Numbered from the stretch's first letter, positions 3,888 to 24,203 are shown. The stretch: 26,358 bases of DNA from an uncultured Candidatus Saccharibacteria bacterium (GCA_964395745.1 CAYNAX010000001.1:3568-29925), one strand, 5' to 3'. Program-made: numbers and translations. The notes: generated by a model not told the origin, from the sequence alone.

Positions 3888-3888
3888 T

Positions 3889-4854: not shown

Positions 4855-4868
4855 AATCCCTAAAAAGT

Positions 4869-6245: not shown

Positions 6246-6249
6246 AAAA

Positions 6250-6840
6250 CTAATCTTCTTTTAGATTTCTTAATAAAACATCTGTTTCTAACACAAAATT
6301 TTGGGGTGGGCGAGCAGGATTTACATTTACTACTAAATACACTCTCATTCTTTTTGTGTTTTTAAGATTGGCAGGAGGACCAAGTTCGTTTCCGTCTTTA
6401 TCAAAATAACGAAATATTGGAGGAGCATTTCTAACATATTGAGTTAAAGTAATTACTCGCTCCGAACTACTTGGATAACTAACCGGACAACATTGCGGCT
6501 CAATAATCCCTTTTTTAAAATTAGTTCCTTCTAAAAAATATCTTATTTTTTCCGTCTCTCCATCGTTATCAATATCGGAAAAAAAAGAAAATTCAAACCC
6601 TTCGGCTCTAACAATTGGAAAAGATCCGTCCTCTCCGGCCCGAGCCTCTCTGATTTCCTTCGCCATTGTTTCAATACCTCTTTGTGCCTCCTCAATACTT
6701 AATGCTTGCTGAAAAGTATAATCCTTGCCAAAATATCCAAACTCAACCAAACTAAAAACTGTTGTTGCTCCTAAAAGAAATATTAAAACTGCCAAGCCTG
6801 CTTCAATTAAAGTAAAACCTTTTCTTTTTCTGTTAATCAT
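6250..6840 (-). CDS. Prepilin-type minor pilin (PilW/GspJ-like)
   Basis: KRKG|FTLIE prepilin cleavage/methylation motif, hydrophobic helix, AQRGIETMAKEIREA. Confidence 0.88.
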   Translation of the reverse strand: MINRKRKGFTLIEAGLAVLIFLLGATTVFSLVEFGYFGKDYTFQQALSIEEAQRGIETMAKEIREARAGEDGSFPIVRAEGFEFSFFSDIDNDGETEKIRYFLEGTNFKKGIIEPQCCPVSYPSSSERVITLTQYVRNAPPIFRYFDKDGNELGPPANLKNTKRMRVYLVVNVNPARPPQNFVLETDVLLRNLKED

Positions 6841-8171
6841 ATTGGGGCCAAATAAATCTCTTTTGTTATTTCTCCTGAAACATAGAAGGTTTCTGTGTAA
6901 GAATTATATCCCTCCATCTGAATTTCTAAAGTATAGTTTCCTTCTTCTAAGGGTATAAAAAGGCTTTCTCCTTGAGAGTTTGTGGGTATGGTCTGGTCGT
7001 ATCCTGTACTGTTATAAAGACGAGTTGAAACAGAAAAAACCGGATCGCCCGTCGAAGCATCATAAACTTTAACCAGGCAGGAGTTCTGCGCTCCTAAAAT
7101 AAGCCGCACATCTTTTGTTTCTCCAGGCAATAAATCTATAGGCTGTGTCGTAGGTGTCCCGGGGGGTGATTCTACTCCTATAAGTTGAAGGTCCTCGGGT
7201 GAAAGTATGGAAAAATTATAAGAGTCCCATTCTAAATTCGAGATTTCTAATAAACCTGAGCTGTCTGTTTGCAAAATTTCATCTGTCTTATATACGGGAT
7301 CTCCAGAAGCATCTGTGCCTATGATCTTTTCTCCTTGTAGACGAAATTCAACATTCCCAATAGGAGGATATCCGTTTTCTTCAGAGCCTACAGTGCTAAC
7401 ATTCATTATTCCCAATAAATCTATTTCAAAACCTATCTCTGTGGTTTGATTATTAAAAACACTTACATGGGGTTTAAGAGGATTAGCAATTTCATCTTCT
7501 CCATATGTTCGATCTGTACTGTAACCTGTCTTGGTAACAGTAATCTGATAACTTTCAGTGCTTTCAGGCAAACCCAAAAGCACTAAATTACCCTGGCTAT
7601 CAGTCAGATAGTTAGCATCTATAATAGGGTCTACCTGATCATTATATATGTGAACTTCGGCGTTGGAGACGCCCTGATTCTCTGCGTCTTTTACATTAAT
7701 AGAAAGAATTCCCCCTCCAACACTTTCTTCTACGGTGGCAGGAACAATATCTGTAGCAAACAATACTTCTCCTGAATTTTCCCCTGCCCATGATACTCTT
7801 ACTTCTGCTTTTTTATAATCTGTTGGAGTAGAATCATCAGGAGATAATCCATCAGAAGGATCATCTACATAAACTATAGTGGTTTTAACAGTAAACTCCC
7901 CACCATTATAAGTTTTGATTTCTTCTTGAGGCACTGGACCAGAAGGTACCCCGCCTGTCGTTCCTACATTTTCGTAAGATAGGCTTCTAATCTCTTCAAT
8001 TCTTTGGTTTGCCAAAAAAATTGCTGTTGATCTTAATTTAGATTGAGCAACTACTTTTACGCTCAAAATATACATCCCCACAATTCCCCAAAAAACAATC
8101 CCGATCAGACCAATCCCTATAATGCTTTCTACCAAACTCATCCCTTTTTGGCTGTAGTAAAGCTTTAACAT
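6837..8171 (-). CDS. Prepilin-type minor pilin (PilV-like) fused to three carboxypeptidase-regulatory-like beta-sandwich domains
   Basis: QKG|MSLVE motif and A..LANQRIEEIRSLSY. Three repeats of the V.D.....V..A.V / TDS.G / Y...I...GY pattern. The ATG at 8171 is preferred over the TTG at 8198. Confidence 0.82.
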   Translation of the reverse strand: MLKLYYSQKGMSLVESIIGIGLIGIVFWGIVGMYILSVKVVAQSKLRSTAIFLANQRIEEIRSLSYENVGTTGGVPSGPVPQEEIKTYNGGEFTVKTTIVYVDDPSDGLSPDDSTPTDYKKAEVRVSWAGENSGEVLFATDIVPATVEESVGGGILSINVKDAENQGVSNAEVHIYNDQVDPIIDANYLTDSQGNLVLLGLPESTESYQITVTKTGYSTDRTYGEDEIANPLKPHVSVFNNQTTEIGFEIDLLGIMNVSTVGSEENGYPPIGNVEFRLQGEKIIGTDASGDPVYKTDEILQTDSSGLLEISNLEWDSYNFSILSPEDLQLIGVESPPGTPTTQPIDLLPGETKDVRLILGAQNSCLVKVYDASTGDPVFSVSTRLYNSTGYDQTIPTNSQGESLFIPLEEGNYTLEIQMEGYNSYTETFYVSGEITKEIYLAPI

Positions 8172-8181
8172 TTTAGAGGTT

Positions 8182-9384
8182 TTAGTGCATTGTGCCAATC
8201 ATTGAATAGATTGGCTTTATCATTGAAACCGCAAACAAAGCAATAACTCCTCCAATAACAAGCAGGAGGATTGGCTCAATAATTGAAGCCAGATTTTGAG
8301 TTGTATTGGTTACTTCTTCGTCAAAAAATTCTGCTAACCTTAATAAAACTTCAGAGGTTTGACCCGTCTCCTCTCCTACCTCCAACATTTGAACAAATAC
8401 TGGAGGATAAATCTCTGGAAATTGAGCAATTATTGAAGAAAGTTTTTTTCCTTTTTTTACATCTTTTGAGGCTTTTATTAAAACCTCCTTAAATTTCTCA
8501 TTAGAGACTGTCTCTGAAGTAATTTGTAGGGCTTCTACGATAGGCACACCGCCAGAAATCAAAGAGCTCAAAGTTCTGGCGCTATATGCGGTATTAATTT
8601 TTTTGATTAAGGTTGAAACAAATGGTATCTTTAAAACAAAATTATCCCAACTATTTTTAAGTTTGCTATTTCTTTTTAGAAGAATAATAAAGGCAATAAT
8701 CGAAAGTGGAATAAGCAACAAAAGATACCAATAATCTTTAAAATAATTTCCCAAATTCATTATTATTCTTGTGGTTTTGGGAAGTTCTATGTTTAAAGAC
8801 TTAAACGCTTCGCTTAATTTTGGAACAACCAAAACCAACATCACAACTCCAATTAAAATCATTGCAATTACTACTATCATAGGATACATTAGCGCTCCCT
8901 TTACCTTTGATCTCAATCGAAAATCCTTCTCTAAATGAGAGGCGAGAGTATCTAAAACATCTGGCAAGCCTCCAGTTTTTTCTCCCACCTTTACCATGCT
9001 TGAGAAAATTTTTGGAAAAACCCTTGGATATTCGGCAAGGGTTTCTGAAAAAGAACTGCCTTGAATAATTTTTTCTTTGATTTCTTGAAGGATTTTTTGA
9101 AAATATTTGTTTCTGCTCTGGGAGGTTAAGACATCTAAAGATTTAGGAAGAGAAACGCCAGCCGCAAGCATCACCTGTAGGTTTCTAATAGCCATCATTT
9201 TCTCTTTTAAAGGAACTCTTTTTAAACTTAAAAAACTTTTCTTTTGTTTGTCTAAAGAAGCTGAAATTAATAAAAAGCCCTGAGCTGAAAGTTTCTGGGC
9301 TAAGTCCTTCACATTAGCCGCCTCTTCTTTTCCAGAAACAGTTTCGCCTGATTCATTTTTTGCTAAATAACGATAAATGGCCAT
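8182..9384 (-). CDS. pilC: Type IV pilus platform protein PilC / GspF family
   Basis: N-terminal YRYLAKNESG, two T2SSF repeats (VGEKTGGL; VGEETGQT), ALMYP and IIEP motifs. Confidence 0.95.
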   Translation of the reverse strand: MAIYRYLAKNESGETVSGKEEAANVKDLAQKLSAQGFLLISASLDKQKKSFLSLKRVPLKEKMMAIRNLQVMLAAGVSLPKSLDVLTSQSRNKYFQKILQEIKEKIIQGSSFSETLAEYPRVFPKIFSSMVKVGEKTGGLPDVLDTLASHLEKDFRLRSKVKGALMYPMIVVIAMILIGVVMLVLVVPKLSEAFKSLNIELPKTTRIIMNLGNYFKDYWYLLLLIPLSIIAFIILLKRNSKLKNSWDNFVLKIPFVSTLIKKINTAYSARTLSSLISGGVPIVEALQITSETVSNEKFKEVLIKASKDVKKGKKLSSIIAQFPEIYPPVFVQMLEVGEETGQTSEVLLRLAEFFDEEVTNTTQNLASIIEPILLLVIGGVIALFAVSMIKPIYSMIGTMH

Positions 9385-9387
9385 AAT

Positions 9388-11133
9388 TTATTCAATTATT
9401 ACCCTCAAAACTTCTTCTATAGAAGTAATTCCTTGGGCTGCTTTTACAAACCCATCCTCTACCATCGTTCTCATTCCTTCTTTTAATGCCTGTTTTTGAA
9501 TTTCTTCATCGCTTACCTCTTGAGTGATTAATTTCTTTATTGTTTCTGTAACTGATAAAACCTCAAAAATACCGATTCTACCTTTATACCCTTCTTCGCA
9601 AGTTTTAGTGGGTTTTGGTCTGTAAAATTTAATATCGCGAATTGTTTTATTGCGCCCCTTTATTAATCCTTCTTCTTTTAAGATTTTTGTAATCCTTTCT
9701 AAGTCACAATATTTTGAAATTCTTTTTATGGCCGCGTCATCTAAATAATACTCTTCTTTATCTTCGCAAAGCCTCCTTACCAATCTCTGGGCTATAACTA
9801 TATTAAGGGTTGAGGCAATTAAAAAAGGTTCTACTTTCATATCTATCAATCTTGGAATTGCTCCAGCGGCGCTATTGGTGTGAAGAGTAGAAAGAACAAG
9901 ATGTCCGGTAAGGGCAGCATTTACTGCTAAAGAGGCGGTTTCATTATCTCTTATCTCTCCGACCATAATAATATCAGGGTCCTGCCTTAAAAGAGATCTT
10001 AAACCATTTGCAAAAGTTAAGCCAATCTCGGGTTTCACTTGGGTCTGATTAACCCGGGGCATTCTATACTCTACCGGATCTTCAATAGTAGAAATATTTA
10101 CCTCAGGTGTATTAAGAATTTCTATCATTGAATACAAAGTAGTTGTTTTTCCTGAACCAGTAGGACCGGTAACTAAAATCATTCCTGTAGGTTTTCGCAA
10201 AGCCATTTGAACTTCTTCTAGGTCTCTACCTCTTAATCCCAATGTCTCTAAGTTATAACCCTTTGATTCTTCTGGAAGGATTCGCATTACTACTTTTTCG
10301 CCGTTGATAACAGGCAGCACGGATACTCTCACAGAAAATTTGTTACCCCCGCTTTCAAATCTAAATCGTCCGTCTTGAGGTAGTCTGTGTTCATCTAGTT
10401 TTAGGTCTGAAAGCACTTTAATTCTCGCCACAATACCCGGAGCAATATTTTTAGGGAGAGTCATTACTTCTCTTAAAATTCCATCTATTCTATACCTTAC
10501 TAAAACCTCTTTCTCTGTCGGTTCTATATGAATATCAGAGGCGCGATCTAGAACCGCATGCTGAAGCAGAGTGTCAACTATTTTAATTATTGGAACTTCC
10601 TGAGCAATTTTTTCTAAATTGTCCTGTTTTTCTGCTTTTGTTTCGATTGTTTTTATGCCCTGCGCCTCTTTTTGAATAATTCTGCCAAACTCTGCACTGA
10701 GGGTTTTTTTGTATTGAGCAAGAGCATTTTTGATACTTTCTGGATCAGTAAGTCGGGGCAAAATTTTAAGATTAGTTTTCTTTTTTATAAAATCAATTGT
10801 CTGAAGGTCTTCTGGGTCAAGCATAGCCACTTCCAAATTTCTACCTTTTTTCCGAAAAGCAACAATATTATGAGCCCTAGCAATCGGTTCTGGAATAATC
10901 TCCAAAATTTCCTTGGGAATAATCTCGTCTTTTAAACTGATAAAAGGAATCCCAAGGATATATGCTTTTAAACGAATGAGTTCCTCGGGTGAAATTAATT
11001 TATCCAAAATTAAAACATCTTCCAGTTTTTTACCTGTTTTTTTTGCTTTCTCCTCTGCCTTTTTTAAATCTTTTTCTTTAACAAGGTTTGTGTCTAGAAG
11101 AAAAAGTTTGAGTTGTTGATCCTCAACCTTCAT
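9388..11133 (-). CDS. pilB: Type IV pilus extension ATPase PilB / GspE family (operon copy)
   Basis: Walker A GPTGSGKTT, Asp box TIEDPVE, Walker B RQDPDIIMVGEIRD, His box TGHLVLSTLH, and a long N-terminal domain. Confidence 0.95.
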   Translation of the reverse strand: MKVEDQQLKLFLLDTNLVKEKDLKKAEEKAKKTGKKLEDVLILDKLISPEELIRLKAYILGIPFISLKDEIIPKEILEIIPEPIARAHNIVAFRKKGRNLEVAMLDPEDLQTIDFIKKKTNLKILPRLTDPESIKNALAQYKKTLSAEFGRIIQKEAQGIKTIETKAEKQDNLEKIAQEVPIIKIVDTLLQHAVLDRASDIHIEPTEKEVLVRYRIDGILREVMTLPKNIAPGIVARIKVLSDLKLDEHRLPQDGRFRFESGGNKFSVRVSVLPVINGEKVVMRILPEESKGYNLETLGLRGRDLEEVQMALRKPTGMILVTGPTGSGKTTTLYSMIEILNTPEVNISTIEDPVEYRMPRVNQTQVKPEIGLTFANGLRSLLRQDPDIIMVGEIRDNETASLAVNAALTGHLVLSTLHTNSAAGAIPRLIDMKVEPFLIASTLNIVIAQRLVRRLCEDKEEYYLDDAAIKRISKYCDLERITKILKEEGLIKGRNKTIRDIKFYRPKPTKTCEEGYKGRIGIFEVLSVTETIKKLITQEVSDEEIQKQALKEGMRTMVEDGFVKAAQGITSIEEVLRVIIE

Positions 11134-11159
11134 ATCTAATAAATCTCTTTGGTAAAATT

Positions 11160-11525
11160 TTATTGAATGGTTTCTTTTATCTTTTTGATAACTTCGTCCA
11201 GTTTATAATCTGATTTTACCAGGTATGCTCGCGCGCCTAAACTGACGGCTTTCTCTATTCCTTGGGGGTTCTCTATATTGGTGAGAACTATTACTGGAAT
11301 ATCTTTTGTTTTCTCATCCTCTCTTAATTTTGCCAAGAGATCTAATCCGTGCATTTTGGGCAGAATAAGGTCAAGAAGAATTAAATCTGGAAGTTCCTGC
11401 TGCGCCAATCTTAAACCCGTCTCTCCATCAAGAGCGCTGAGAACCTTGTATCCTTCTTTTCTCAGAGTCTCCCCTATGGTTTTTTGAAGCGTTGCTTCAT
11501 CTTCTATAAATAATATTTTTTTCAT
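11160..11525 (-). CDS. Single-domain response regulator (REC only)
   Basis: KILFIEDE, LILLDLILP phospho-Asp, VIVLT and YLVK conserved. No output domain. Confidence 0.93.
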   Translation of the reverse strand: MKKILFIEDEATLQKTIGETLRKEGYKVLSALDGETGLRLAQQELPDLILLDLILPKMHGLDLLAKLREDEKTKDIPVIVLTNIENPQGIEKAVSLGARAYLVKSDYKLDEVIKKIKETIQ

Positions 11526-11535
11526 AAAACCAGGG

Positions 11536-12465
11536 TTAATTCTTAGGTAGGATTATTGTAAAAATGGTTCCTTTGCTAAGTTTTGAAGAAAAATATATTT
11601 TACCCCCTAGACGCTCAACAATAGTTTTTACAATAAAAAGGCCAAGTCCTGAACCGCAAGGATCTTTCTCCATAGCATTGCTTGCTCTAAAAAATTTTTG
11701 AAAAAGAAATTGTTTTGATTTGTCAGGTATACCTATGCCTGTATCCTGAATTTTCAAGATAACTTTTTTTCTCCCCTTATTTCTTGTTATTATTCTCACC
11801 CTTCCTTTAGGTTTATTGTATCTAATTGCATTATCTAAAAGATTTTCAACAACAGTTTTTAGCAAATCCTCTGGCTGAGTTATCTCAATTTTGTCAGGAT
11901 TACAATCAAGCTCTACTTTTATATTGGAGGCCCTTATTAAGGGAGAGAAATTTTTTACCACTTCTCTTATTATTTTGTTAAGGTCGAAGGGGTGTTTAGA
12001 AAAAACTCTTGGGTTTTTAATTTTGGCAACGATTACCAGATCATTAACTAAATTGTCCATTCTTTGAATGTTTTCTTCAATAAGGTCGAAATATTCTTTA
12101 TAAGAAGGAGGGAGTTGCTTGATTTCTTTTTCTTTTTGGACACTCTCCAGCAACCATTTAAGGTTGGTAATTGGGGCCCGAAGTTGATGAGAAACAATAT
12201 TGGAAAAATCCTCTTTGAGTTTGTTTATTTCTACTAGATCTTCCAAACTTCGGGTGATAACATAAGCAATAACAAACAGGATTGCAGAAATAGCAGAAAC
12301 TATTAAAGCAACGATACGCGGATCATCAATATATCTTTGGCCCAGAAAATAGAAAAAGATAGTTGAGACAATGTTAATAACGCCCATCACCAAGAACAAG
12401 AACTGAGGACACTGCCACAGAGGAAGGCCTAAACTTTTACAGTTTGAGATAAATTTTAGTCTCAT
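11536..12465 (-). CDS. Membrane sensor histidine kinase (2 TM, HisKA, HATPase_c)
   Basis: Two hydrophobic helices, H-box SHQLRAP, N-box NLLDNAIRY, G1 DTGIGIP, G2 GSGLGL. Confidence 0.93.
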   Translation of the reverse strand: MRLKFISNCKSLGLPLWQCPQFLFLVMGVINIVSTIFFYFLGQRYIDDPRIVALIVSAISAILFVIAYVITRSLEDLVEINKLKEDFSNIVSHQLRAPITNLKWLLESVQKEKEIKQLPPSYKEYFDLIEENIQRMDNLVNDLVIVAKIKNPRVFSKHPFDLNKIIREVVKNFSPLIRASNIKVELDCNPDKIEITQPEDLLKTVVENLLDNAIRYNKPKGRVRIITRNKGRKKVILKIQDTGIGIPDKSKQFLFQKFFRASNAMEKDPCGSGLGLFIVKTIVERLGGKIYFSSKLSKGTIFTIILPKN

Positions 12466-12471
12466 AGTTTT

Positions 12472-12501
12472 ATTCTATCATATTGTTTCAACCTCTGTCG
12501 A
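12472..12501 (-). promoter_or_regulatory. Putative extended -10 promoter of the HK-REC-pilus operon (leaderless geometry)
   Basis: Minus strand TCGACA (12501-12496), N18, TGA-TAGAAT (12477-12472), then 6 nt to the ATG at 12465. Confidence 0.55.
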
Positions 12502-12504
12502 CCT

Positions 12505-12528
12505 TTCGATATTTCGATATCTCGATAT
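12505..12528. repeat. Octamer direct repeat x3 (TTCGATAT TTCGATAT CTCGATAT)
   Basis: Read directly at 12505-12512, 12513-12520 and 12521-12528 in the divergent HK/rpsT intergenic region. Confidence 0.85.
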
Positions 12529-12541
12529 TTTTAATTCCTGC

Positions 12542-12570
12542 TTGAAATTATCATCATTTTCTGATAACCT
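12542..12570 (+). promoter_or_regulatory. Putative sigma70 promoter of rpsT
   Basis: TTGAAA (12542-12547), N17, TAACCT (12565-12570). Confidence 0.4.
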
Positions 12571-12601
12571 TGTGTATATAACAAAATTATTAAAAATTAA
12601 T

Positions 12602-12856
12602 ATGCCTATCAGCAAATCTGCCAAAAAAGCCCTTCGGCAAAGCATCAAAAGAAAAAAAAGGAACCTCTGGTACAAAAAAAGGATGAAATCCTTGATCAAG
12701 GAATTTCATTCTTTGCTTGGCGCAAACAAAAAAGAAGAAGCCAAAAAACTTCTTCCTAGCATTTACAAAATAATCGATAAATCAGCCAAGGTTGGAGTTT
12801 TGAAAAAGGGGGCTGCGGCAAGAAAAAAATCAAAAATTGCCAAGAAAGCAATCTAA
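12602..12856 (+). CDS. rpsT: 30S ribosomal protein S20
   Basis: MPISKSAKKALRQS..R...N and IDKSAKVGVLKKGAAARKKS match S20. Start corrected to the ATG at 12602. Confidence 0.96.
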   Translation: MPISKSAKKALRQSIKRKKRNLWYKKRMKSLIKEFHSLLGANKKEEAKKLLPSIYKIIDKSAKVGVLKKGAAARKKSKIAKKAI

Positions 12857-13770: not shown

Positions 13771-14639
13771 AGTTTTTGACATTTTGGACAAAAATAAGTA
13801 GAACGTGATCCTATTTTTCTTCGTTCTATTTTTGTACCACAAACATAACAAGGCATTCCTTCTCGTCTATAAACTTTTCTTTCTTTATCAAACCCTCCTT
13901 TCCTACCATCAGGCCTTCGATAATCAGAAATACTTTCTCCTCCCAACTTAATTGCTTTTTTTAACACGCTCTTGATGCTTTTATAAATTCTTTCTGATTC
14001 TTTTACCTTAAGGGTGTTGGCTGGTTTAAAAGGGTGAACTCTTGCCCGAAAGAGAATTTCGTCAGAATAAATATTGCCTATGCCTGAAATTATTTTTTGA
14101 TCCATCAAAACTGCTTTGATTTTTCTTTTTTGGTTTTGTATTATCTCTTTAAATTTATCAAAGGTGAAATTTTTATCTAAAGGATCGGGGCCTAATTGTT
14201 TTAAATCTTTTAGGTTCTCTAATTCTCTTGCTGTTAAAAGTTCTATTCTTCCAAATTTTCTTAAATCAGAAAAAGCAATCATTAACCCATTGTCTAAAAA
14301 AAATATAAGATGTATAAACCTATTCATTGGATCTTCTAAAGGGCCTTTTTTAACAGAAACCCATTCTCCTTTTTCTTTTTTCCATTGGCCCACAAGCAAA
14401 TGTCCTGTAAGTTTTTGATGAATTAAGAGTCGCTTGTCTCCTGACAAATAGAAAATGATAAATTTACCCTTTCTTTTAATGTCTTGTATTTTTCTTCCTT
14501 TTATTTCTCTCTTGAATTTTGCTAGGTTCGGTTTCTTGATAAGTTTGGGAGTGTCTGTCCATATATCAAGAAAAGTCCTTTGAAGGACTTTTCTTTTCAA
14601 ATCCAAAACCGTTGTTTCTACTTCTGGAAGTTCTGGCAT
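13767..14639 (-). CDS. mutM: Formamidopyrimidine-DNA glycosylase / AP lyase
   Basis: N-terminal MPELPEVET, RKGK, H2TH GIGNIYSDEILF, and zinc finger CYVC...CPKCQ. Confidence 0.98.
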   Translation of the reverse strand: MPELPEVETTVLDLKRKVLQRTFLDIWTDTPKLIKKPNLAKFKREIKGRKIQDIKRKGKFIIFYLSGDKRLLIHQKLTGHLLVGQWKKEKGEWVSVKKGPLEDPMNRFIHLIFFLDNGLMIAFSDLRKFGRIELLTARELENLKDLKQLGPDPLDKNFTFDKFKEIIQNQKRKIKAVLMDQKIISGIGNIYSDEILFRARVHPFKPANTLKVKESERIYKSIKSVLKKAIKLGGESISDYRRPDGRKGGFDKERKVYRREGMPCYVCGTKIERRKIGSRSTYFCPKCQKL

Positions 14640-14644
14640 AATAT

Positions 14645-15019
14645 CTATTTGTTTTTTGCTAAAACAAGTTTGATCTTTTCTACAATCTCCTCTGGAGTAA
14701 AGTGGGCTTTAATAAGAAAATCTACCGCTCCCAGATTAAGCCCTTTCTCTATTTCATCTTTCTGTCCTAAGTTTGAAAGAATAACCACCGGAATAGAAGC
14801 TGTCTTTTCGTCCTCCTTTATTCTTTTTAAAACCTCAAACCCATCAATACCTGGTAAAATTAAATCAAGAAGAATTAAATCGGGCATTATCTTTTTTGCC
14901 TTTCTCACACCATCTTCACCATCTATTGCTTCTTCTACTTCATACCCTTCTTTGATAAGCTTCTTGGCTATAAGCTCTCTTAAGAATTTATCATCTTCAA
15001 CTATTAAAATTTGTGCCAT
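14645..15019 (-). CDS. Single-domain response regulator (REC only)
   Basis: ILIVEDD, LILLDLILP, VVILS and FLIK. No output domain. Confidence 0.93.
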   Translation of the reverse strand: MAQILIVEDDKFLRELIAKKLIKEGYEVEEAIDGEDGVRKAKKIMPDLILLDLILPGIDGFEVLKRIKEDEKTASIPVVILSNLGQKDEIEKGLNLGAVDFLIKAHFTPEEIVEKIKLVLAKNK

Positions 15020-15058
15020 ATATAAGTTTTAATTTTATACAGCAATTTAAAGTGTTTG

Positions 15059-15436
15059 TTATTCTGGTTCTCCTAACACTGCTTTCACCTTTTGCAAAAC
15101 CTCTGCTGGGTCAAACTCTGTTTTAATAAGCCAATCCTTAGCTCCAAGTTGCTTTGCCTTATCTAACTCTACGGGTTGTCCTGAATTAGAAATAATAATG
15201 ACAGGAATATCCTTGATTGATGGATCTTTTTGCATTGCCTCCATTACTTCAAAGCCGCTTATCTTTGGCATTATTATATCCAATAATACCAAATCAGGGA
15301 CAATATCGCGAATAGCCTTCAATCCTTTTTCTCCGTCTAGGGCACAGTAAACATCATATCCCAAACCTTCTAGTTTGTCTTTTAGAAGGTCTAGTAAAAT
15401 TTCTTCATCTTCAATAATAAGTATTTTTTTTGCCAT
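15059..15436 (-). CDS. Single-domain response regulator (REC only)
   Basis: ILIIEDE, LVLLDIIMP, VIIIS and WLIK. No output domain. Confidence 0.93.
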   Translation of the reverse strand: MAKKILIIEDEEILLDLLKDKLEGLGYDVYCALDGEKGLKAIRDIVPDLVLLDIIMPKISGFEVMEAMQKDPSIKDIPVIIISNSGQPVELDKAKQLGAKDWLIKTEFDPAEVLQKVKAVLGEPE

Positions 15437-15465
15437 AAATTTTCTTTAATATTAACCCTTTTAAT

Positions 15466-15493
15466 ATTATATCATTTAAAATGCTAATGGCAA
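15466..15493 (-). promoter_or_regulatory. Putative internal promoter for the two receiver genes
   Basis: Minus strand TTGCCA (15493-15488), N16, with TGA-TATAAT extended -10 (15471-15466). Confidence 0.6.
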
Positions 15494-17053
15494 AGTAAAA
15501 TAAAAAGTTGTTCCTTTATTCTCTTGAGATTTAAACCAAATTTTGCCCCCATGCGCTTCTATAATATTTTTTGTGATAAAAAGCCCCAAGCCCGTTCCCT
15601 CTGTTTGCATTCTAACAACATTTGCTCCTCTAAAAAATTTTGTAAAGATTCTCTCTTGTTGATCTTTAGGAATTCCTACTCCAGTATCCTTAACAGAAAA
15701 AACAAGTTCACGCCTCTTTTTTCTCTCCTTAACAGAAACTTCTACCTTTCCTTTTTCCGGCGTATATTTAAGCGCGTTTTCTATTAGGTTCTTCACCGCC
15801 AAACTTATCTTTTCTACATCTACCTTTACTATTTTTTTGCCTTCAGAAATTTCCAGCTTAAATTCAATTTTCTTTTGTTTAGCATACTCTTTTAACGAAT
15901 TATATACCGATTCTACAATTTCTGAGAACTCTACAATTTTGGGCTCATAAACAAACCTGCCCTCTTCTATTCTGGCAACATTTAGAAGATCGTTCACTAA
16001 GTCAATCATTCTTTCATTTGTCTGATATGCTTTTAAAACAAGATCTTTGTCTTCTTTGCTTAATCTTTTTCCCTCTCTTAAAAGACTTAAACTCCATTTA
16101 ATAATTGAGAGGGGCGTTCTTAGTTGGTGAGCAGCAACAGATACAAATTGACTCTTCATCTGTTCTATCAATTTTTCTCTTGAAACATCGTGTAAAATAA
16201 CCAAAATAAGTTTTTCCTTCCCTTGTAATTCAACTATGCTGATGGTTATTTCCAAGAAAAATGATTTACTTATTGCCATCTCCTTTCTAAAAACCTCTTT
16301 TGTTTCCTCTCCCGCTATTTTAAAAATTTGGGCCCACCTTCTGTTTTTTCTCTTTAATGTTTTAGCATCTTTCCCTAAAACCTCTTCTGCTTTTGTTTTT
16401 AGAAATTCTTCGGCTTTAGGATTAATTAAAATTAATTTCTTTGTTTTGTTGAAAACCAAAATCCCATCTACAAAATTCTTAATAATAGCCTCTGTCTTTT
16501 TTCTTTCTTCTTCAGCCCGCCGACGGGCTTCTTCTGTGTCTTCTAATATATTTAAAAGGGCTTTTCGCGACTCCTCTAATTCTTTTGTCCTTTGAATAAC
16601 CTTCTGTTCAATTTCTTCTTGGATTCTTTTTAAGCCGCTAATATCAGTTATTGCGACAAAAAACCCCACAATGTCACCCTCCACATCTTTTCTTGCAGCA
16701 AAAGAAACCTTAACAGCAATCTTTTTTTTCTCTTTTGTTAGTAAGGTCAATTGTATGTTTTCTGTCTCCCCTGATTCTAATAGGTGCTTCTGAATTTTTT
16801 TAACTTTCTCTTTTTCTAAGAAAATCTTTTCTAACCTTTCTCCAACAATCTCTATTTGGTTGTATCCTGTTAGTTTTTCAAAAGATTTATTTGTATTGCT
16901 TATCACTCCCAAAGGATTTAAATCACAAATCGCTATGGGCAGAAAAGAAAAAAGATCGTTTAAATACGAAGAAACATTTAACAGTTCTTCTTTTGTTTCT
17001 TTGACTTCTTCTCTGAGTTTTAAAAATCTCTTTTTAGACAAAAAACAAAACAT
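15476..17053 (-). CDS. Cytoplasmic PAS-PAS histidine kinase
   Basis: No TM. PAS1 (NKSFEKLTGY..EIVG), coiled coil (VIQRTKEL), PAS2 (DGILVF..INPKAEEFL), H-box AHQLRTP, NLIENALKY, DTGVGIP and GTGLGL. Confidence 0.93.
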   Translation of the reverse strand: MFCFLSKKRFLKLREEVKETKEELLNVSSYLNDLFSFLPIAICDLNPLGVISNTNKSFEKLTGYNQIEIVGERLEKIFLEKEKVKKIQKHLLESGETENIQLTLLTKEKKKIAVKVSFAARKDVEGDIVGFFVAITDISGLKRIQEEIEQKVIQRTKELEESRKALLNILEDTEEARRRAEEERKKTEAIIKNFVDGILVFNKTKKLILINPKAEEFLKTKAEEVLGKDAKTLKRKNRRWAQIFKIAGEETKEVFRKEMAISKSFFLEITISIVELQGKEKLILVILHDVSREKLIEQMKSQFVSVAAHQLRTPLSIIKWSLSLLREGKRLSKEDKDLVLKAYQTNERMIDLVNDLLNVARIEEGRFVYEPKIVEFSEIVESVYNSLKEYAKQKKIEFKLEISEGKKIVKVDVEKISLAVKNLIENALKYTPEKGKVEVSVKERKKRRELVFSVKDTGVGIPKDQQERIFTKFFRGANVVRMQTEGTGLGLFITKNIIEAHGGKIWFKSQENKGTTFYFTLPLAF

Positions 17054-17056
17054 ATC

Positions 17057-17665
17057 CTATTTCCAACTTATTACATATTCGTGATAGGGATCATTTCTAA
17101 ACACGCACTTTGTTTCTTCTATTGAAACTTCTTTATCTCCTCCTAAAGCCAGACGGGCTATTTCTGAGAAATAGCCTTTATGATATTGACACATTATCGG
17201 GTGAAACTTATAACCTTTAACTCTTATCACTGTATATTTTTCAATTTCATTAAACTCAACTGGCTCAACTTCGCCAAAATCAAAATGTTTTGCCCAATAC
17301 CGAGGACTTTCTTCGAAACATCTTTTTGGAGAAATAAAATACTTTGTCAAAATTTTAAGAAAAAAAGAAAGTTTCACTGCCGATCTTCCCATTTCAAAAA
17401 TCCCTTCTTTGTTTAATCCCAAAATCTCTTTTGCTAAAAGAACAATTATCACGCTAATTGCCTCAGGATACATCTCCATGGGCTTTATCTCCTCTAAAGT
17501 AAGTTCTATACCAAGTTCTTTCATTCTCTTTTTTAATTGCTCTACCGCCTTCTCTCCTCCTTTAATTTTAATATAATCTATATCTGCTAAAATTACGCCC
17601 CCTTTTACATTTCCTGGAATTTTCATTAAACGTTTTACCTCTTTTGGGCTAAGTTTATCTTCCAT
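17057..17665 (-). CDS. Stand-alone V4R / H-NOX-like (DUF2378-like) putative ligand-binding protein
   Basis: N-terminus VKGGVI...G...V..I.P.E.YP..I..EMGR resembles the H-NOX/V4R fold pattern. The C-terminus has C159, E184, C187 and H195 in V4R-type metal-site spacing. The family is assigned from recalled motifs, not from a search. Confidence 0.65.
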   Translation of the reverse strand: MEDKLSPKEVKRLMKIPGNVKGGVILADIDYIKIKGGEKAVEQLKKRMKELGIELTLEEIKPMEMYPEAISVIIVLLAKEILGLNKEGIFEMGRSAVKLSFFLKILTKYFISPKRCFEESPRYWAKHFDFGEVEPVEFNEIEKYTVIRVKGYKFHPIMCQYHKGYFSEIARLALGGDKEVSIEETKCVFRNDPYHEYVISWK

Positions 17666-17687
17666 TTTAAGATTAATGTTTTACGGG

Positions 17688-18353
17688 TTAATTTTTCGAC
17701 CTATATTTTTCCAGTTCTTTCTCAAGTTGACGAATTCTCTGTTTTAATTCTATCATTTTTGTTTCTCTTCCTACTGTAAGTTTATGGAATCTTTCCAGTT
17801 GCTTTATCCTCTCTTGTAGTTCTTTTGTTCTTTCTTTTACTTGAGCGTCTAAATTCTTTGCCATTTCCTCAAGTTCTCTGGTTCTTGCTTTTACCCTAAC
17901 TTCTAAAACTTTTTTCTCTTCTTCTAGTTGATCTTTGGTTTCTTTGAGTTGGCCTATCATAAAATTGAATTCTTTTCCAAGTTGGGCTAATTCGTCATTC
18001 CCTTTAACTTCCACTCTTGTGTTTAAATCGCCGGCTGCAGCTCTTTTAACCACTTTCACCAACTCTCTAATAGGAGCAACAATCCTCTGGGTAAAGATTA
18101 CTGCAAAAAACATTGTCATTAATACCACAAAAACAAAAGTAGAGGCTGCCACAATCCATGTGTTAAATATATTTGCCTCCACATTACTAAACTCTTCAAG
18201 CGGAAGCATCTCTTTTAAAGGGTCTATTGCTGTTTCGTATCCGCGATTAATGATGTATGCGAAAATTAAGTTTGAAAAAATAGTAATTGCCAGAATACCA
18301 TAAAAAATTCTGAAAAAGATACTCCCTTGTTTTGCTCTTTGGAGTGGCTTCAT
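17688..18353 (-). CDS. 2-TM HAMP-domain protein with a C-terminal coiled coil and no catalytic output domain
   Basis: Two TM helices, HAMP (IVAPIRELVKVVKRAAAGDL...GNDELAQLGKEFNFM), then VKARTREL/VKERTKEL heptads to the stop. Confidence 0.9.
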   Translation of the reverse strand: MKPLQRAKQGSIFFRIFYGILAITIFSNLIFAYIINRGYETAIDPLKEMLPLEEFSNVEANIFNTWIVAASTFVFVVLMTMFFAVIFTQRIVAPIRELVKVVKRAAAGDLNTRVEVKGNDELAQLGKEFNFMIGQLKETKDQLEEEKKVLEVRVKARTRELEEMAKNLDAQVKERTKELQERIKQLERFHKLTVGRETKMIELKQRIRQLEKELEKYRSKN

Positions 18354-18360
18354 TATTCTA

Positions 18361-18369
18361 ATGATACCA
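18361..18369 (-). promoter_or_regulatory. Putative extended -10 promoter of the HAMP-V4R-HK operon (leaderless geometry)
   Basis: Minus strand TGG-TATCAT (18369-18361), then 7 nt to the ATG at 18353. Confidence 0.5.
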
Positions 18370-18398
18370 AATGTTTTAATTTTTTAAAATAAAGAGGG

Positions 18399-19364
18399 TT
18401 AAATAAGTTTTTGTTGAGTTGGTTCTTGGTTGTTGGATAATTGCTCTTTTTTGCTTTCGGGATTAAAAATCTCGGGCAGTCTTTTGACTAAACTGAAAAA
18501 TTCAAACTCTTCTAAAATCTTTTTTGCCTTAGATAAGTTCTCCTTATTAATTGCACATTCTTTCAAATTAAAATTTATCGGCGCATCTTTTTTAATCTCA
18601 ACAAGTTTTCTTGAAAAGAAAGCCTCTTCTTTTGAACGAATTAACTGCTCCCTTAATCTTGGAGATATTTTTTTTGTAATGTCGTGATTTTCTTCTATCT
18701 CTTTGTAAAGATTTTCTAAAGAACCAAACTGTTTAATTAAATTAATGGCTGTTTTTTCTCCTATACCTGAAACTCCAGGAACGTTGTCTGAAGGATCTCC
18801 CCTTAGGGCTTTAAAATCAATCAATTGTTCTGGCTCTATTTGATATCTTTCTTTTACTTTTTCCTTGTCGTATAAAACTGCCTCCTTAATACCTCTTTTT
18901 AGAAGAAGAACTTTTGTGTAATTATCAACTAACTGAAGTGCATCTAGGTCTCCTGTTGTAATGATCGCCTCAATTTTGGGAAAAATTTGTTTTCTCTCTA
19001 CCAATTTTACAATTGTTCCTATAAGATCGTCTGCTTCAAAGCCCTTAAGTTCAAAAAATTTAATTCCAAAAGCCTTAAGAATTTTTTTTACCTCTGGAAT
19101 TTGCTCATACAATTCATCAGGGGCTTTCTTTCTTTTGGCTTTGTATTCTTTATAAATATTGTCTCTAAAAGTTGGGGCAGGAAAATCAAAAGCAACAATT
19201 ACAAAATCTGGTTTTAAATCCTTAAATACTCTAAACAAGATTAAAAGAAAACCATAAACAGCATTAACAACCTTGCCTGATTTTGTAGTAAGTTTTGGCA
19301 ATGCATGATAGGCGCGATGAACTATCGCATTGCCATCTATAATAACTATCTTTTTCTTCTCCAT
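18399..19364 (-). CDS. Stand-alone 5'-3' exonuclease/flap endonuclease (PolA N-terminal domain only)
   Basis: IIDGNAIVHRAYHA, YKAKR, GFEADDLIGT, TGDLDALQL and GDPSDNVPGVSGIGEKTA. No polymerase domain follows. The ATG at 19364 is preferred. Confidence 0.92.
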   Translation of the reverse strand: MEKKKIVIIDGNAIVHRAYHALPKLTTKSGKVVNAVYGFLLILFRVFKDLKPDFVIVAFDFPAPTFRDNIYKEYKAKRKKAPDELYEQIPEVKKILKAFGIKFFELKGFEADDLIGTIVKLVERKQIFPKIEAIITTGDLDALQLVDNYTKVLLLKRGIKEAVLYDKEKVKERYQIEPEQLIDFKALRGDPSDNVPGVSGIGEKTAINLIKQFGSLENLYKEIEENHDITKKISPRLREQLIRSKEEAFFSRKLVEIKKDAPINFNLKECAINKENLSKAKKILEEFEFFSLVKRLPEIFNPESKKEQLSNNQEPTQQKLI

Positions 19365-19891: not shown

Positions 19892-19920
19892 TTGACTTTT
19901 GGAATTTTTAGAATTAAATT
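19892..19920 (+). promoter_or_regulatory. Putative sigma70 promoter of the DHH-like/pilB2 operon
   Basis: TTGACT (19892-19897), N17, TAAATT (19915-19920). The ATG at 19931 is 10 nt further on. Confidence 0.55.
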
Positions 19921-19930
19921 AAGAAAGATT

Positions 19931-21013
19931 ATGGACGAACTTCAAGAAATCAGACAAAAAATACTCCATTCTCAATCTGTGCTTTTAGTTACCAAAGATG
20001 ACAAGCCCATCTTAGATTTAATATCTGCATTTTTTTGCCTTTTTTACACTCTAAAAAGGATTGGCAAAAAAGTAAACATTTACCCGGAAACAATCAAGGA
20101 TAAATTTTCTCTTTTGCCTCATTGTATTGATAACCTCAACTCCTATATTTTGGAAATCTCGCCCCCGAATGACATCTCTGAATTGTACTATCAAAAAAAC
20201 TCCGAATCTTTCCGACTGCTAATTACTTTATCAAAAAAACCCGCCTCTTCTAACAACATTCGTCTTTTTTCTTTAGAAGACGATCCTCTAAATTCAAATG
20301 TTGATTTAATTATTTCTCTTGGAGTGAGAAATTTAGAAGAGTTAGGAGAATATTATGAAAAAAACTTTAAAACATTTTTTGAGGGCTTTATCTTGAACAT
20401 AGACAACCAAAAAGATAATCTTGATTTTGGACAAATAAATTGGGTAGAAGAGAATATCGCTCTCTCGGAAATGATTCATCAACTGGCCATAAATCTTTTG
20501 CCAAAAACAGAAGATAAAATTTTGCTAGAAAATCTTTCTGTAGGAATAATTGACTATTACAAAAAAGATCCCGAAAAAATATTACAGGTTTTCACCCTTG
20601 CCCAAAGAAATGCTTTAGAAATAAAAAATATTCTAAGGCCCTTTTTGAAAAATTCTGAACCCGAAATTTTGACTTTTTTCGAAAAAGTATTAAAAAGAAT
20701 TAAGATAATAGGCAAAAGCAATATTCCTTTAGCGATTTTAACCAAAAAGGAGTTTGGCAATATAGATCGTCAAAAAATTATTTACCTTATTAAGATGCTT
20801 CGTACTCAAGTATTCAAATTCCCCTCTTTGCTAATTTTATGGGAACCCCATAATAACTTATCATCTTTTAGAGGGGTTTTTTATTTTCCAGAAAAAGAAA
20901 AATTGGTTCATCTTGCCTCCAAGGTAAGAGGACAAACTAATGGAAAAGTCCTTCTTTTTCAAATACCAAAAGAAAACAAGGAACAGTTAATACAAGAAAT
21001 TTCAAGTTATTAA
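19931..21013 (+). CDS. Degenerate DHH-family (NrnA-like) protein lacking catalytic motifs
   Basis: The order and spacing of DHH blocks are recognisable, but the residues are altered: PILDLISA (vs PDGDAxGS), DLIISLG (vs DLIITVD), LNIDNQKDN..FGQIN (vs INIDHH..N..FG.IN). Start taken as the ATG at 19931. Confidence 0.6.
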   Translation: MDELQEIRQKILHSQSVLLVTKDDKPILDLISAFFCLFYTLKRIGKKVNIYPETIKDKFSLLPHCIDNLNSYILEISPPNDISELYYQKNSESFRLLITLSKKPASSNNIRLFSLEDDPLNSNVDLIISLGVRNLEELGEYYEKNFKTFFEGFILNIDNQKDNLDFGQINWVEENIALSEMIHQLAINLLPKTEDKILLENLSVGIIDYYKKDPEKILQVFTLAQRNALEIKNILRPFLKNSEPEILTFFEKVLKRIKIIGKSNIPLAILTKKEFGNIDRQKIIYLIKMLRTQVFKFPSLLILWEPHNNLSSFRGVFYFPEKEKLVHLASKVRGQTNGKVLLFQIPKENKEQLIQEISSY

Positions 21014-21018
21014 ATTTT

Positions 21019-22317
21019 ATGGTGAAAATAACCGACAAAATTGTTATACCTTCAAACATCCAGAAATTGGTTCAAGAAAAAGTTGAAAGTGTGTCTGATT
21101 TTGCCAAAGAAATTGAAAATTTTTTAAATAAAGATATTAGCGAACTTCTCAGTTTAATTTTGGCTGGCGCAATCCATTTGTTTGCCTCAGATATCCACTT
21201 AGAACCCCAGGAAGAAAACGTTCGTTTAAGAATCAGGTTAGACGGAATGCTTCAAGATGTCTTTTCTTTTCAGCCAGAAGCATATCGTCTTTTGCTCTCA
21301 AGAATAAAATTATTGGCCGGATTAAAATTAAACATCCATGATAGAGCCCAAGATGGAAGTTTTTCTGTTGCATTACCAAATTTAGAAATAGAAATAAGAA
21401 CTTCTGCCCTGCCCGCAGATTATGGCGAATCTATTGTAATGAGAATTTTAAATCCTCAAACCTTAAAAAACATTGAAGAATTGGGGTTAAGAAAAGATCT
21501 TTTAGAATTATTTAAAAGTGAAATCCAGAAACCAAACGGAATGATTATTGTGACTGGTCCTACCGGCTCAGGAAAAACTACTACCCTGTATGCTTTCCTG
21601 CGCTTTCTTCAAAAACCCGAAATCAAAATTATTACTATTGAAGATCCAATTGAGTACAGATTGGAAGGAATCTCACAAACAGAAGTTCATCCAGAAAAAG
21701 GATATGATTTTGCAAATGGTTTAAGATCCATTGTTCGCCAAGACCCAGATGTGATTCTCGTAGGAGAAATAAGAGATAAAGAAACCGCTGAAATTGCTTT
21801 GCAGGCGGCTCTCACCGGCCATTTGGTTTTTTCCACTCTTCATACAAACGATGCTCCGGGCGCTATTCCAAGACTGGCATCTTTGGGAGCAAATCCTATT
21901 AATATTGCACCGGCAATTAATATGATTATTGCTCAGAGATTGGTAAGAAAAGTGTGCCAAAAATGCGCTCTCCCAAGAAAAATTACTCCCGAAGAATTTC
22001 AAATGCTAAAATCAGAATTCTCTAATCTGCCCAAAGATATTAAAATCCCCAAAATTTCTCAGGATTTAGAAGTTGTGGAAGCAAAAGGTTGTAAATACTG
22101 CAATTTTACTGGTTATAAAGGAAGAGTGGGTATTTTTGAAGCTTTTTTAGTAGATTCTGAAATGGAAGATTTAATTCTTAGAAAGCCTTCTGTCTCTGAA
22201 ATGAGAAAAATAGCAGAGAAAAAAGGAATGGTTTCTATGTATAAAGATGGTTTAATAAAGGTTATAGAGAAAATTACCACTATAGAAGAGGTAAAAAGAG
22301 TGGCTATGGAAAGGTGA
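21019..22317 (+). CDS. pilB: Second PilB/GspE-family secretion ATPase (short N-terminus)
   Basis: ASDIHLEP, GPTGSGKTT, TIEDPIEY, RQDPDVILVGEIRD, TGHLVFSTLH, intact CQKC...CKYC and GYKGR. No PilT AIRNLIRE motif. Confidence 0.88.
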   Translation: MVKITDKIVIPSNIQKLVQEKVESVSDFAKEIENFLNKDISELLSLILAGAIHLFASDIHLEPQEENVRLRIRLDGMLQDVFSFQPEAYRLLLSRIKLLAGLKLNIHDRAQDGSFSVALPNLEIEIRTSALPADYGESIVMRILNPQTLKNIEELGLRKDLLELFKSEIQKPNGMIIVTGPTGSGKTTTLYAFLRFLQKPEIKIITIEDPIEYRLEGISQTEVHPEKGYDFANGLRSIVRQDPDVILVGEIRDKETAEIALQAALTGHLVFSTLHTNDAPGAIPRLASLGANPINIAPAINMIIAQRLVRKVCQKCALPRKITPEEFQMLKSEFSNLPKDIKIPKISQDLEVVEAKGCKYCNFTGYKGRVGIFEAFLVDSEMEDLILRKPSVSEMRKIAEKKGMVSMYKDGLIKVIEKITTIEEVKRVAMER

Positions 22318-23495: not shown

Positions 23496-24203
23496 GTGAA
23501 AAAGATCTTGGCTAAAATTTTGCTTTCTTTTATCATTATTTTCTTTTGGGGTAAAGCAACCTGCTATGCTTGGGAAAATTCTATAGTAATCAATGAAATT
23601 GCCTGGACGGGAACTCAAGATGGTTTTACAAAAGAATGGATAGAACTTTATAATCCTTCTGATAGGAATATAAACATAAATGGTTGGCGTCTTATAGATA
23701 AACTTGGAAAAATAGACATTACCTTAAAGGGAGAAATTCCTCCTTTTTCTTTTTTTGTTTTAGAGAGATCGTCAGACAAAACTCTTCCTGATATTAAGGC
23801 AGATATTGTTTATAGTGGGGCTTTGAAAAATAGCGGAGGCGATCTTGTATTAATCAATAAAGAAGGTAAAATAATAGACCAAGTTTCTTGTAAAAGCGGT
23901 TGGTTTGCAGGAGATAATAAGACAAAGAGAACTATGGAAAGAAGGAGCGCTTATGTATCTGGATCAGATCCTAACAACTGGCAAACAAGTATTTATCCTG
24001 GTGGAACCCCCAAAAAGAAAAATTTGATTCTTGTGTCTAAAAAAGAGGCAGAAAATGCTTCAAATCAGGAAAGGGTAAATCTAGAGAATTTTTCTCGTAA
24101 AAACTCTTTTTTCTCTAAATTTCTCTTGGCAAGTATTTCTTCTTTTTCTTTGACTTTTCTTGTTTCTAAATTTAAATTTAATAAAGAGAAGCAAAATTAT
24201 TAA
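23496..24203 (+). CDS. Exported lamin-tail-domain (LTD) protein with a C-terminal hydrophobic segment
   Basis: Signal-like N-terminus (GTG start), IVINEIAW..EWIELYNPSD..ININGWRLID and LKNSGGDLVL..IDQV LTD pattern, hydrophobic C-terminus FLLASISSFSLTFLV. Confidence 0.8.
   Translation: MKKILAKILLSFIIIFFWGKATCYAWENSIVINEIAWTGTQDGFTKEWIELYNPSDRNININGWRLIDKLGKIDITLKGEIPPFSFFVLERSSDKTLPDIKADIVYSGALKNSGGDLVLINKEGKIIDQVSCKSGWFAGDNKTKRTMERRSAYVSGSDPNNWQTSIYPGGTPKKKNLILVSKKEAENASNQERVNLENFSRKNSFFSKFLLASISSFSLTFLVSKFKFNKEKQNY

Follow-up and report, generated by a model that had tools for sequence, protein, structure and literature searches.

A window of 26,358 nt (whole stretch of DNA analysed) from an uncultured Candidatus Saccharibacteria bacterium (GCA_964395745.1) carries on its minus strand, at positions 14645-18353, a cassette of five genes, which encode a membrane protein with a HAMP domain and no kinase domain (HAMP protein), a soluble protein of 202 amino acids (aa) with a predicted H-NOX fold, a soluble sensor histidine kinase and two response regulators that consist of a receiver alone (REC1 and REC2). 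The cassette and its relatives are read here, with somewhat better than even confidence, as a modular two-component system assembled in trans, which occupies one chromosomal site in Paceibacteria-type Patescibacteria. A receptor assembled in trans had already been proposed in a preliminary description of the locus. This remains the best reading, given that in relatives the kinase is split and its detached half bears the same conserved C-terminal tail that ends the HAMP protein. The features that stand out in the comparisons are this undescribed conserved tail on kinase-less sensors, an H-NOX-fold protein that lacks haem ligands and is tied to a PAS module, and split and fused variants linking both to a kinase-REC-REC core. 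The five co-directional open reading frames (ORFs) of the preliminary description were all recovered at the coordinates of Table 1, intact and tightly spaced.

The HAMP protein proved to be organised as first described, with two transmembrane segments (residues 16-34 and 67-85 by hydropathy) separated by a loop of about 30 residues, a HAMP domain (PF00672) directly after the second segment and a long coiled coil with which the protein stops. The AlphaFold2 (AF2) model (predicted local distance difference test, pLDDT, 80.6) displays residues 121-220 as one unbroken helix continuing AS2 of the HAMP domain; the model is that of a monomer and thus gives no information on the oligomeric state. The coiled coil ends in a C-terminal module of about 67 aa, the tail, in which two S-helix units are followed by ELERFHKLTVGRELKMIELKKEI, with the consensus xVLEIKVKARTRELEELAxxLEExVKERTKELQERxxELERFHKLTVGRELKMIELKKEI. 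The tail is the most conserved part of the HAMP subfamily, with a column identity of 0.82 vs 0.46-0.56 for the transmembrane segments, loop and HAMP domain, and its profile (alignment A2) exhibits a mean column identity of 76%; G195, R196, E197 and M200 are among its invariant residues. No Pfam family in the Pfam scans and no chain in the PDB search covers it, and the literature searched held nothing specific on the tail, on kinase-less HAMP proteins or on signalling in the candidate phyla radiation (CPR). The 'ERT' signature, generic to S-helices (PMC1592074), occurs twice in the HAMP protein (K-A-R-T-R-E-L and K-E-R-T-K-E-L) and once in the kinase (Q-R-T-K-E-L). S-helices are 'almost always' found between two signalling domains (PMC1592074), whereas the module is terminal in the HAMP protein and almost all of the best 150 tail-bearing representatives; judged by these sequences, a large family whose members close with an S-helix and a conserved extension therefore departs from that rule, and the tail beyond the generic 'RTKEL' heptad is its diagnostic conserved element.

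The possibility raised in the preliminary description, that the HAMP gene is a kinase fragment left by truncation or a frameshift, is scarcely credible, and so is an artefact of assembly. The HAMP protein and the kinase do jointly tile the model of a WalK-like membrane kinase in NCBIfam (HAMP protein 64-151 on WalK 174-261, kinase 156-523 on WalK 229-594), and one relative, L089, does have a membrane-fused kinase. However, among 165 homologues of the HAMP protein at E <= 1e-5, the best 120 are all short (126-382 aa), exhibit HAMP, PAS or no Pfam domain, and in no case carry HisKA or HATPase; the C-terminal tail is strongly conserved, the usage of the three stop codons is normal and the next gene lies in another frame, and the gene that follows the HAMP gene in the window does not encode a kinase. 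The region is also reproduced in independent metagenome assemblies, including one contig that spans 14600-18450 with 1 mismatch, and no intragenic indel was found among them. These comparisons indicate that the HAMP gene is a genuine stand-alone gene and no broken kinase.

The tail is shared by a wide range of sensors without kinase domains. A search of 1.84 billion representative proteins with the tail profile matched at least 1,404 representative clusters at E <= 1e-10, and in the best 150 matches, proteins of 69-558 aa, the module lies almost always at the extreme C-terminus. Pfam scans of 138 tail representatives assigned their N-terminal parts to HAMP (44), HisKA_7TM (11), PAS (11) and dCache_1 (10), with GAF, flavodoxin, Cache_3-Cache_2, 5TMR-LYT, sCache and 4HB_MCP as further types, and detected no transmitter domain in any of the 138. 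The gene context was assessed in a tail-centred sample, drawn from metagenome contigs independently of the H-NOX-like gene (at least 600 pattern matches, of which 80 loci were kept; handles with L denote single loci). Most of these loci with enough flanking sequence lie in the same kinase-REC-REC cassette; a kinase on the same strand follows within 6 kb for 40 of the 65 tail genes with at least 3 kb of downstream sequence, and every kinase found near tail genes carries the part made up of an 'ALLNILED' linker and the second PAS domain (PAS2). An overlap of 4-29 nt between a tail gene and a kinase gene, each in its own frame, is frequent, and TAA, TAG and TGA serve as tail-gene stops in ordinary proportions; the frame-shifted overlaps and ordinary stop codons indicate that the tail genes are real and translationally coupled and no readthrough artefacts. 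A readthrough, recoding or frameshift origin was accordingly rejected on stop usage, reading frames and independent assemblies. In L089 (4933-9920), a variant of the cassette, a periplasmic amino-acid-type solute-binding protein (SBP_bac_3, 9.5e-41) is encoded between two tail genes and the kinase is fused to six transmembrane segments, while a 311-aa membrane protein in L112 (5278-6213) matches the tail profile by tblastn and holds two RTxEL units, failing the strict tail pattern. The latter displays a weak PilS-like 6TM match (PF25323, E 0.0041), a hint that some such sensors could monitor pilin in the membrane.

The splitting of the kinase in relatives provides the strongest argument, drawn from gene comparisons, that tail proteins signal to the kinase in trans. 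The kinase of the window is a HisKA-type sensor kinase with two PAS domains, HisKA (299-365) and HATPase_c (412-523) by Pfam, and its catalytic boxes are intact, with H309 in HQLRTP, the N-box at 412, DTGVG at 456, FTKF at 470 and GTGLGL at 486; hydropathy gave no convincing transmembrane segment, in line with the PAS-PAS-HisKA-HATPase protein without membrane anchor that had been described. Its most conserved segments are the DHp region (0.78) and the ALLNILED linker (0.71), the latter following the S-helix behind the first PAS domain (PAS1). At the same chromosomal site, split kinases are present in L042/L043, L045, L046, L097 and L115, in the order HAMP-tail protein, FIST-domain protein, PAS-tail protein, kinase of 379-433 aa, REC, REC. 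The split falls after PAS1 and the S-helix of the window-type kinase; the short kinases start at 'GRDALMNILEDVENAR…' ('ALMNILED'), those of L042, L045 and L046 at or just before the ALLNILED motif, where the kinase of the window continues past its S-helix with 'SRKALLNILEDTEEAR…'. The detached half, an N-helix with PAS1, ends in the tail, which argues that the tail replaces the covalent link to the ALLNILED-PAS2-DHp-catalytic (CA) kinase.

The two receivers stand alone, as had been described, with Response_reg as their only domain and covering the whole of both proteins, and are CheY-like, with the acidic pocket, the phospho-acceptor Asp and the conserved Lys represented by ED9-10, D53 and K104 in REC1 and by DD9-10, D52 and K103 in REC2. 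REC1 is always the first of the pair in relatives, and REC2 retains 69-97% identity among relatives whose kinases share about 50%. In the final stretch of the kinase gene, shortly before REC1, lies the best sigma-70-like match of the region (15466-15493, minus strand, 11/12, extended -10 TG included), which suggests that the two REC genes may have transcription of their own as well.

The cassette as a whole was traced through a second sample of 36 loci that was centred on the H-NOX-like protein and consisted entirely of species-representative genomes. All but one (35 of 36) belong to metagenome-assembled genomes (MAGs) of Patescibacteria, labelled Nealsonbacteria, Wildermuthbacteria, Paceibacterota or generically ('uncultured Candidatus Saccharibacteria'). 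About 21 of the 36 display the order tsaE, exonuclease gene, [tail protein], H-NOX-like gene (one to three copies), kinase, REC1, REC2, (fpg), holA and rpsT. The upstream tail protein is interchangeable, being of the type with transmembrane segments and HAMP; a periplasmic domain with HAMP (330 aa); six to seven transmembrane segments without HAMP; flavodoxin with multiple transmembrane segments (about 440 aa); a single transmembrane segment in a protein of 108-157 aa; or a Cache sensor. The variable region at the site consists almost exclusively of signalling genes and always ends in the kinase-REC-REC core. In L003, a bAvd gene (diversity-generating retroelement accessory variability determinant; 12262-12603) lies a few kb downstream of the cassette.

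The 202-aa protein, whose stop codon is separated from the kinase start by the 3 nt noted before, had been proposed as a V4R/H-NOX-like sensor, and this held for its predicted fold and failed for membership of the H-NOX sequence family. Its relatives are likewise stand-alone proteins of about 200 aa and form with it a family of 61 clusters down to 45% identity, whose alignment (A1) exhibits invariant W124, R148 and H155 and near-invariant Y144, C159, H162, E184 and C187. The AF2 model, computed with the family alignment (pLDDT 92.6), corresponds to an H-NOX fold over its full length: the top Foldseek match is Nostoc H-NOX (E 5e-8, TM-score 0.71/0.78 over 192 columns), the best 45 PDB fold matches are all H-NOX domains (TM-score 0.6-0.78; after Nostoc, soluble guanylate cyclase β1, Tt, So and others), and V4R sensor domains (MopR, TM-score 0.47-0.49) and YslB appear near rank 48-50. 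At the sequence level the only Pfam match of the protein itself is a sub-threshold one to V4R (E 0.0073, 16.8 bits vs a cut-off of 31). Within the family, V4R (PF02830) is matched by 28 of 34 members at E <= 10 (best 1.6e-7), and HNOB (PF07700) by 2 of 34 (best E 0.017). No similarity to Tt H-NOX was returned by hhalign (probability 0.1%; the Tt sequence used was checked solely against residue numbers in PDB titles), and no sequence homology to PDB chains was found. The nearest named sequence family is TIGR02265/DUF2378 (Myxococcus paralogous family), matched over residues 24-202 (profile 14-184 of 184) with 22.3 bits, below the cut-off of 25. The fold, the V4R-like sequence and the lack of a conserved proximal His together lead to its designation as an H-NOX-fold member of the V4R/H-NOX superfamily.

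A canonical haem-based gas (NO/O2) sensor acting on the kinase, as with HnoX/HnoK of Shewanella and Vibrio, appears improbable. The full-length fold and the position of the gene directly upstream of a soluble kinase agree with such a sensor, as does the pair of Y144 (at least 90% conserved) and R148 at i, i+4 on a β-strand, in the manner of YxSxR, but the Ser of that motif is replaced by Val/Ile, the match to HNOB is marginal, and the proximal haem-ligating His, absolutely conserved in H-NOX (PMC7108781), has no invariant counterpart. The helix 113-127 before the β-sheet is without an invariant His, H127 and C116 vary, and the invariant H155 follows strand 2, an equivalence judged by secondary structure and not by superposed coordinates. 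The conserved residues C159, E184, C187 and H195, spaced by 25, 3 and 8, parallel in spacing the Zn sites of Shewanella H-NOX (C139-H161-C164-C172; PMC7108781) and DmpR (C151-E172-C177-C185; PMC7264223) and represent a putative metal site; the 202-aa protein thus most likely, as far as conservation patterns tell, binds metal rather than haem.

The place of the H-NOX-like protein in the circuit is indicated by its neighbours. In the tail-centred sample, with PAS1 counted whether fused to a kinase or part of a PAS-tail protein, the gene lies immediately upstream (<200 nt) of 21 of the 30 PAS1-bearing genes vs none of the 20 kinases without PAS1, and pairs of H-NOX-like and PAS-tail genes also occur outside the cassette in L016, L019 and L028 and twice in L046. 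This supports the PAS1 module, and not the HAMP protein, as the probable steady partner of the H-NOX-like gene. There is a slim chance that the protein is instead an adaptor or output element downstream of the kinase or parallel to it. In archaeal response regulators, REC domains are fused to MetOD1, an output domain whose secondary structure is HNOB-like and whose Cys cluster is V4R-like (PMC5847659); two family members match MetOD1 weakly, and tandem arrays of paralogues occur without kinases. Yet it is PAS1 input modules, and not REC genes, that the gene precedes in tight linkage, and a REC fusion was seen in no relative among the 61 clusters. The N-terminal domain of the L075 kinase was considered as a fused H-NOX-like domain and is kept as no more than a lead, having a weak match to DUF2507/YslB (E 0.027) and none by hhalign. 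FIST-domain proteins recur in a comparable manner beside HAMP-tail proteins of about 330 aa with a periplasmic domain (L003, 3541-5996; L046, 3621-8462; L047, 4538-6990; L042, 6001-8055), with four FIST genes in the single cassette of L046, and FIST plus HAMP-tail may constitute another type of detachable sensor pair.

Several observations weigh against assembly in trans. Comparison of the tail with the kinase linker by hhalign aligned the 14-column S-helix heptad alone (probability 42%), and the idea of the tail as a mimic of the kinase ALLNILED helix was dropped on this result. The heptads VKARTREL/VKERTKEL of the HAMP protein and VIQRTKEL of the kinase were read in the sequence as first given, but their likeness, taken in the preliminary description as a pointer to pairing, is not specific evidence for it, since RTKEL is a generic S-helix signature. 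No kinase was present in the available downstream sequence of 25 of the 65 tail genes, and tail genes of L044 and L047 lie far from any kinase. The L089 locus, in which tail genes accompany the membrane-fused kinase, implies that the tail is not merely a stand-in for a missing anchor. The HAMP-V4R-kinase-REC-REC cassette of the preliminary description is conserved across Patescibacteria with the HAMP gene as a facultative part: a tail gene is missing from the cassette in four species-level loci, one of which has a FIST and HAMP-tail pair elsewhere on the same contig, and in others the HAMP protein is replaced by a different tail protein. The association of the H-NOX-like gene with PAS1 (Fisher 2e-7) comes from a test uncorrected for phylogeny, and in L025 (4926-9204), L033 (3186-8162) and L039 (3956-6943) the gene forms tandem arrays of five to eight paralogues of about 200 aa each, from which PAS, kinase and tail genes are absent to a distance of 5 kb. 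Finally, the order of the housekeeping neighbours is conserved equally well, so that synteny alone is weak evidence.

The same observations bear on an explanation under which the tail proteins are autonomous. The tail would then be an output or scaffold for a partner other than the kinase (a REC protein, the pilus ATPases or a membrane lattice of the tail proteins themselves), and adjacency to the kinase would represent the frozen gene order of reduced genomes. The equally syntenic tsaE, exonuclease gene, fpg, holA and rpsT, the tail genes away from kinases and the lack of sequence complementarity to the kinase beyond the S-helix are in its favour. It is nevertheless considered unlikely, as the variable region of the site holds almost nothing except signalling genes in front of the constant kinase-REC-REC end, the PAS1 half of the split kinase bears the tail, and tail and kinase genes overlap.

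Under assembly in trans, the invariant core would consist of the soluble kinase (ALLNILED linker, PAS2, DHp, CA) with the two CheY-like receivers, and a variable set of kinase-less input proteins would be encoded just upstream of it; the physical interactions, the ligand and the output in the scheme that follows are inferred. In the first class of inputs, the protein with transmembrane segments, HAMP and tail is predicted to form a dimeric coiled-coil stalk of about 100 residues, the tail end of which would dock on the kinase dimer and modulate autophosphorylation. The likeliest docking site would be the ALLNILED linker, PAS2 or DHp, because this is the sole part present in all partner kinases. 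In the second class, the H-NOX-fold/V4R-like protein would probably respond to redox state or to a small ligand by way of its putative Cys/Glu/Cys/His metal site and act on the kinase via the PAS1 module. The kinase would pass phosphoryl groups to REC1 and REC2, which have no output domains and must therefore act by protein-protein contacts. A broader picture is offered tentatively and with considerable doubt, in which many kinase-less tail sensors (7TM, HAMP, Cache, PAS, GAF, flavodoxin) dock in trans on one soluble kinase as a chemoreceptor-like plug-in network, with the tail as a transmitter module not described before, H-NOX/V4R-fold and FIST proteins are detachable ligand sensors on particular modules, and the two CheY-like proteins receive the summed signal and steer type IV pili for host contact.

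Table 1. Genes of the cassette and modules within them, in positions of the 26,358-nt window
Feature	Position	Strand	Details
TM-HAMP-tail protein (TM, transmembrane)	18353..17688	-	221 aa
H-NOX-fold/V4R-like soluble protein	17665..17057	-	202 aa
PAS-PAS-HisKA-HATPase_c kinase	17053..15476	-	525 aa
REC1, REC-only response regulator	15436..15059	-	125 aa; PF00072, 1.1e-21
REC2, REC-only response regulator	15019..14645	-	124 aa; PF00072, 1.6e-26
HAMP domain	17943..18095	-	HAMP protein residues 87-137; PF00672, 60.5 bits, 1.9e-16
Tail module	17712..17912	-	HAMP protein residues 148-214; S-helix units VKARTRELEE, VKERTKELQE + LERFHKLTVGRETKMIELKQRI
N-helix + PAS1	16634..17053	-	kinase residues 1-140; also found as separate PAS-tail proteins
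S-helix (VIQRTKELEE) + ALLNILEDTEEARRRAEEERKKT ('ALLNILED') linker	16484..16633	-	kinase residues 141-190; split point in relatives

The window is AT-rich (G+C about 33%) and originates from hydrothermal-vent metagenomes; matches to the sequence were found solely in DNA metagenomes, with none among transcripts. The cassette is preceded in it by tsaE and a 5'-3' exonuclease gene and followed by fpg, holA and rpsT. As listed in the preliminary description, the window encodes three REC-only proteins, two kinases and two PilB-type ATPases. The second kinase (11536-12465, minus strand) is a minimal membrane protein of 309 aa with two transmembrane segments and no sensor domain, and lies with the third REC-only gene (11160-11525) directly upstream of PilB/PilC (the group at 8182-12465), an order also observed in L001 and L030. 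PilB (9388-11133, minus strand) has an MshEN N-terminus by Pfam, and its match to NF053729 (MshE-type c-di-GMP-binding motif) is sub-threshold (26.6 bits vs a cut-off of 38); a cyclase was not observed in the window. The other PilB-type protein is a PilB/GspE-like ATPase of 432 aa (21019-22317), encoded on the strand opposite to the cassette, without N-terminal domain and not PilT-like (434 vs 187 bits), which is conserved beside a 373-aa protein without Pfam or NCBIfam match (pair at 19892-22317, plus strand); in many relatives these two genes diverge from tsaE. A pilus cluster (2793-8198) contains PilM and large proteins with Ig-like, CarboxypepD_reg and SpaA-like domains, and a lamin-tail-domain protein follows ruvB (23496-24203); these large proteins and the lamin-tail protein are possible surface or adhesion components. 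Control of pili by the cassette is speculative and draws on neighbourhood, namely the divergent PilB-like ATPase and the separate HK2-REC3-PilB cluster.

The genomes of Patescibacteria are tiny and their way of life is host-dependent; to our knowledge, next to nothing is known of their means of perceiving the environment. Should the tail act as a transmitter in trans, one kinase would be shared economically among many interchangeable sensors, a wiring principle that would be new to two-component signalling and would break with the S-helix as a linker within one chain. Two unannotated families, the tail module and the H-NOX-fold protein without haem ligands, are defined here, each with testable partners, and as the components are small soluble proteins or fragments that could be expressed in E. 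coli, signalling of uncultured CPR bacteria becomes directly testable. Two-component systems whose co-sensors act in trans are a known kind of system; of the version seen here, no description was found in the literature searched.

Among known systems, H-NOX/HnoK of Shewanella and Vibrio (PMC7108781) shares with the cassette an H-NOX-fold gene directly upstream of a cytoplasmic kinase, more than one response regulator and a Cys-rich metal site with the same x-3-8 spacing, and in haem-free Vc H-NOX such a site can serve as a redox switch on the kinase (PMC7108781). The 202-aa family differs in having neither a conserved proximal His nor an HNOB signature and is closer to V4R, TIGR02265/DUF2378 and MetOD1; in addition, the kinase here is of the PAS-PAS type, the gene tracks PAS1, the outputs are REC-only and there are extra kinase-less membrane sensors. 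Soluble guanylate cyclase exhibits the same module order of H-NOX-like domain, PAS and ERT S-helix, its H-NOX domain packing on the PAS domain and coiled coil, whereas the modules here are separate polypeptides, the output is a histidine kinase and not a cyclase, and haem binding is unlikely. The S-helices described earlier (PMC1592074) share the ERT signature and heptads, of which the HAMP protein has two copies and the kinase one, but in the HAMP protein the S-helix and its conserved extension end the protein. Chemoreceptors with CheA and CheY likewise combine many variable sensors with one conserved coiled-coil signalling end, one soluble kinase and REC-only outputs, and several relatives of the HAMP protein are named 'methyl-accepting chemotaxis protein' by JGI. 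The differences are that the kinase here is an ordinary HisKA kinase and the tail is predicted as a continuous helix (121-220) and not a hairpin; Pfam detected no MCPsignal in the HAMP protein or the 138 tail representatives, and no CheW/CheA homologue turned up among the window ORFs scanned. Co-sensor, three-component and split-kinase systems are exemplified by UhpC/UhpB and by WalK with YycH/YycI, and we know of no described accessory protein with this tail. The cassette resembles them in the proposed control of a separate kinase by a membrane protein that itself lacks a kinase domain and in its WalK-type tiling, and differs from them in its soluble kinase and in a whole repertoire of unrelated sensors that carry one putative docking-type tail.

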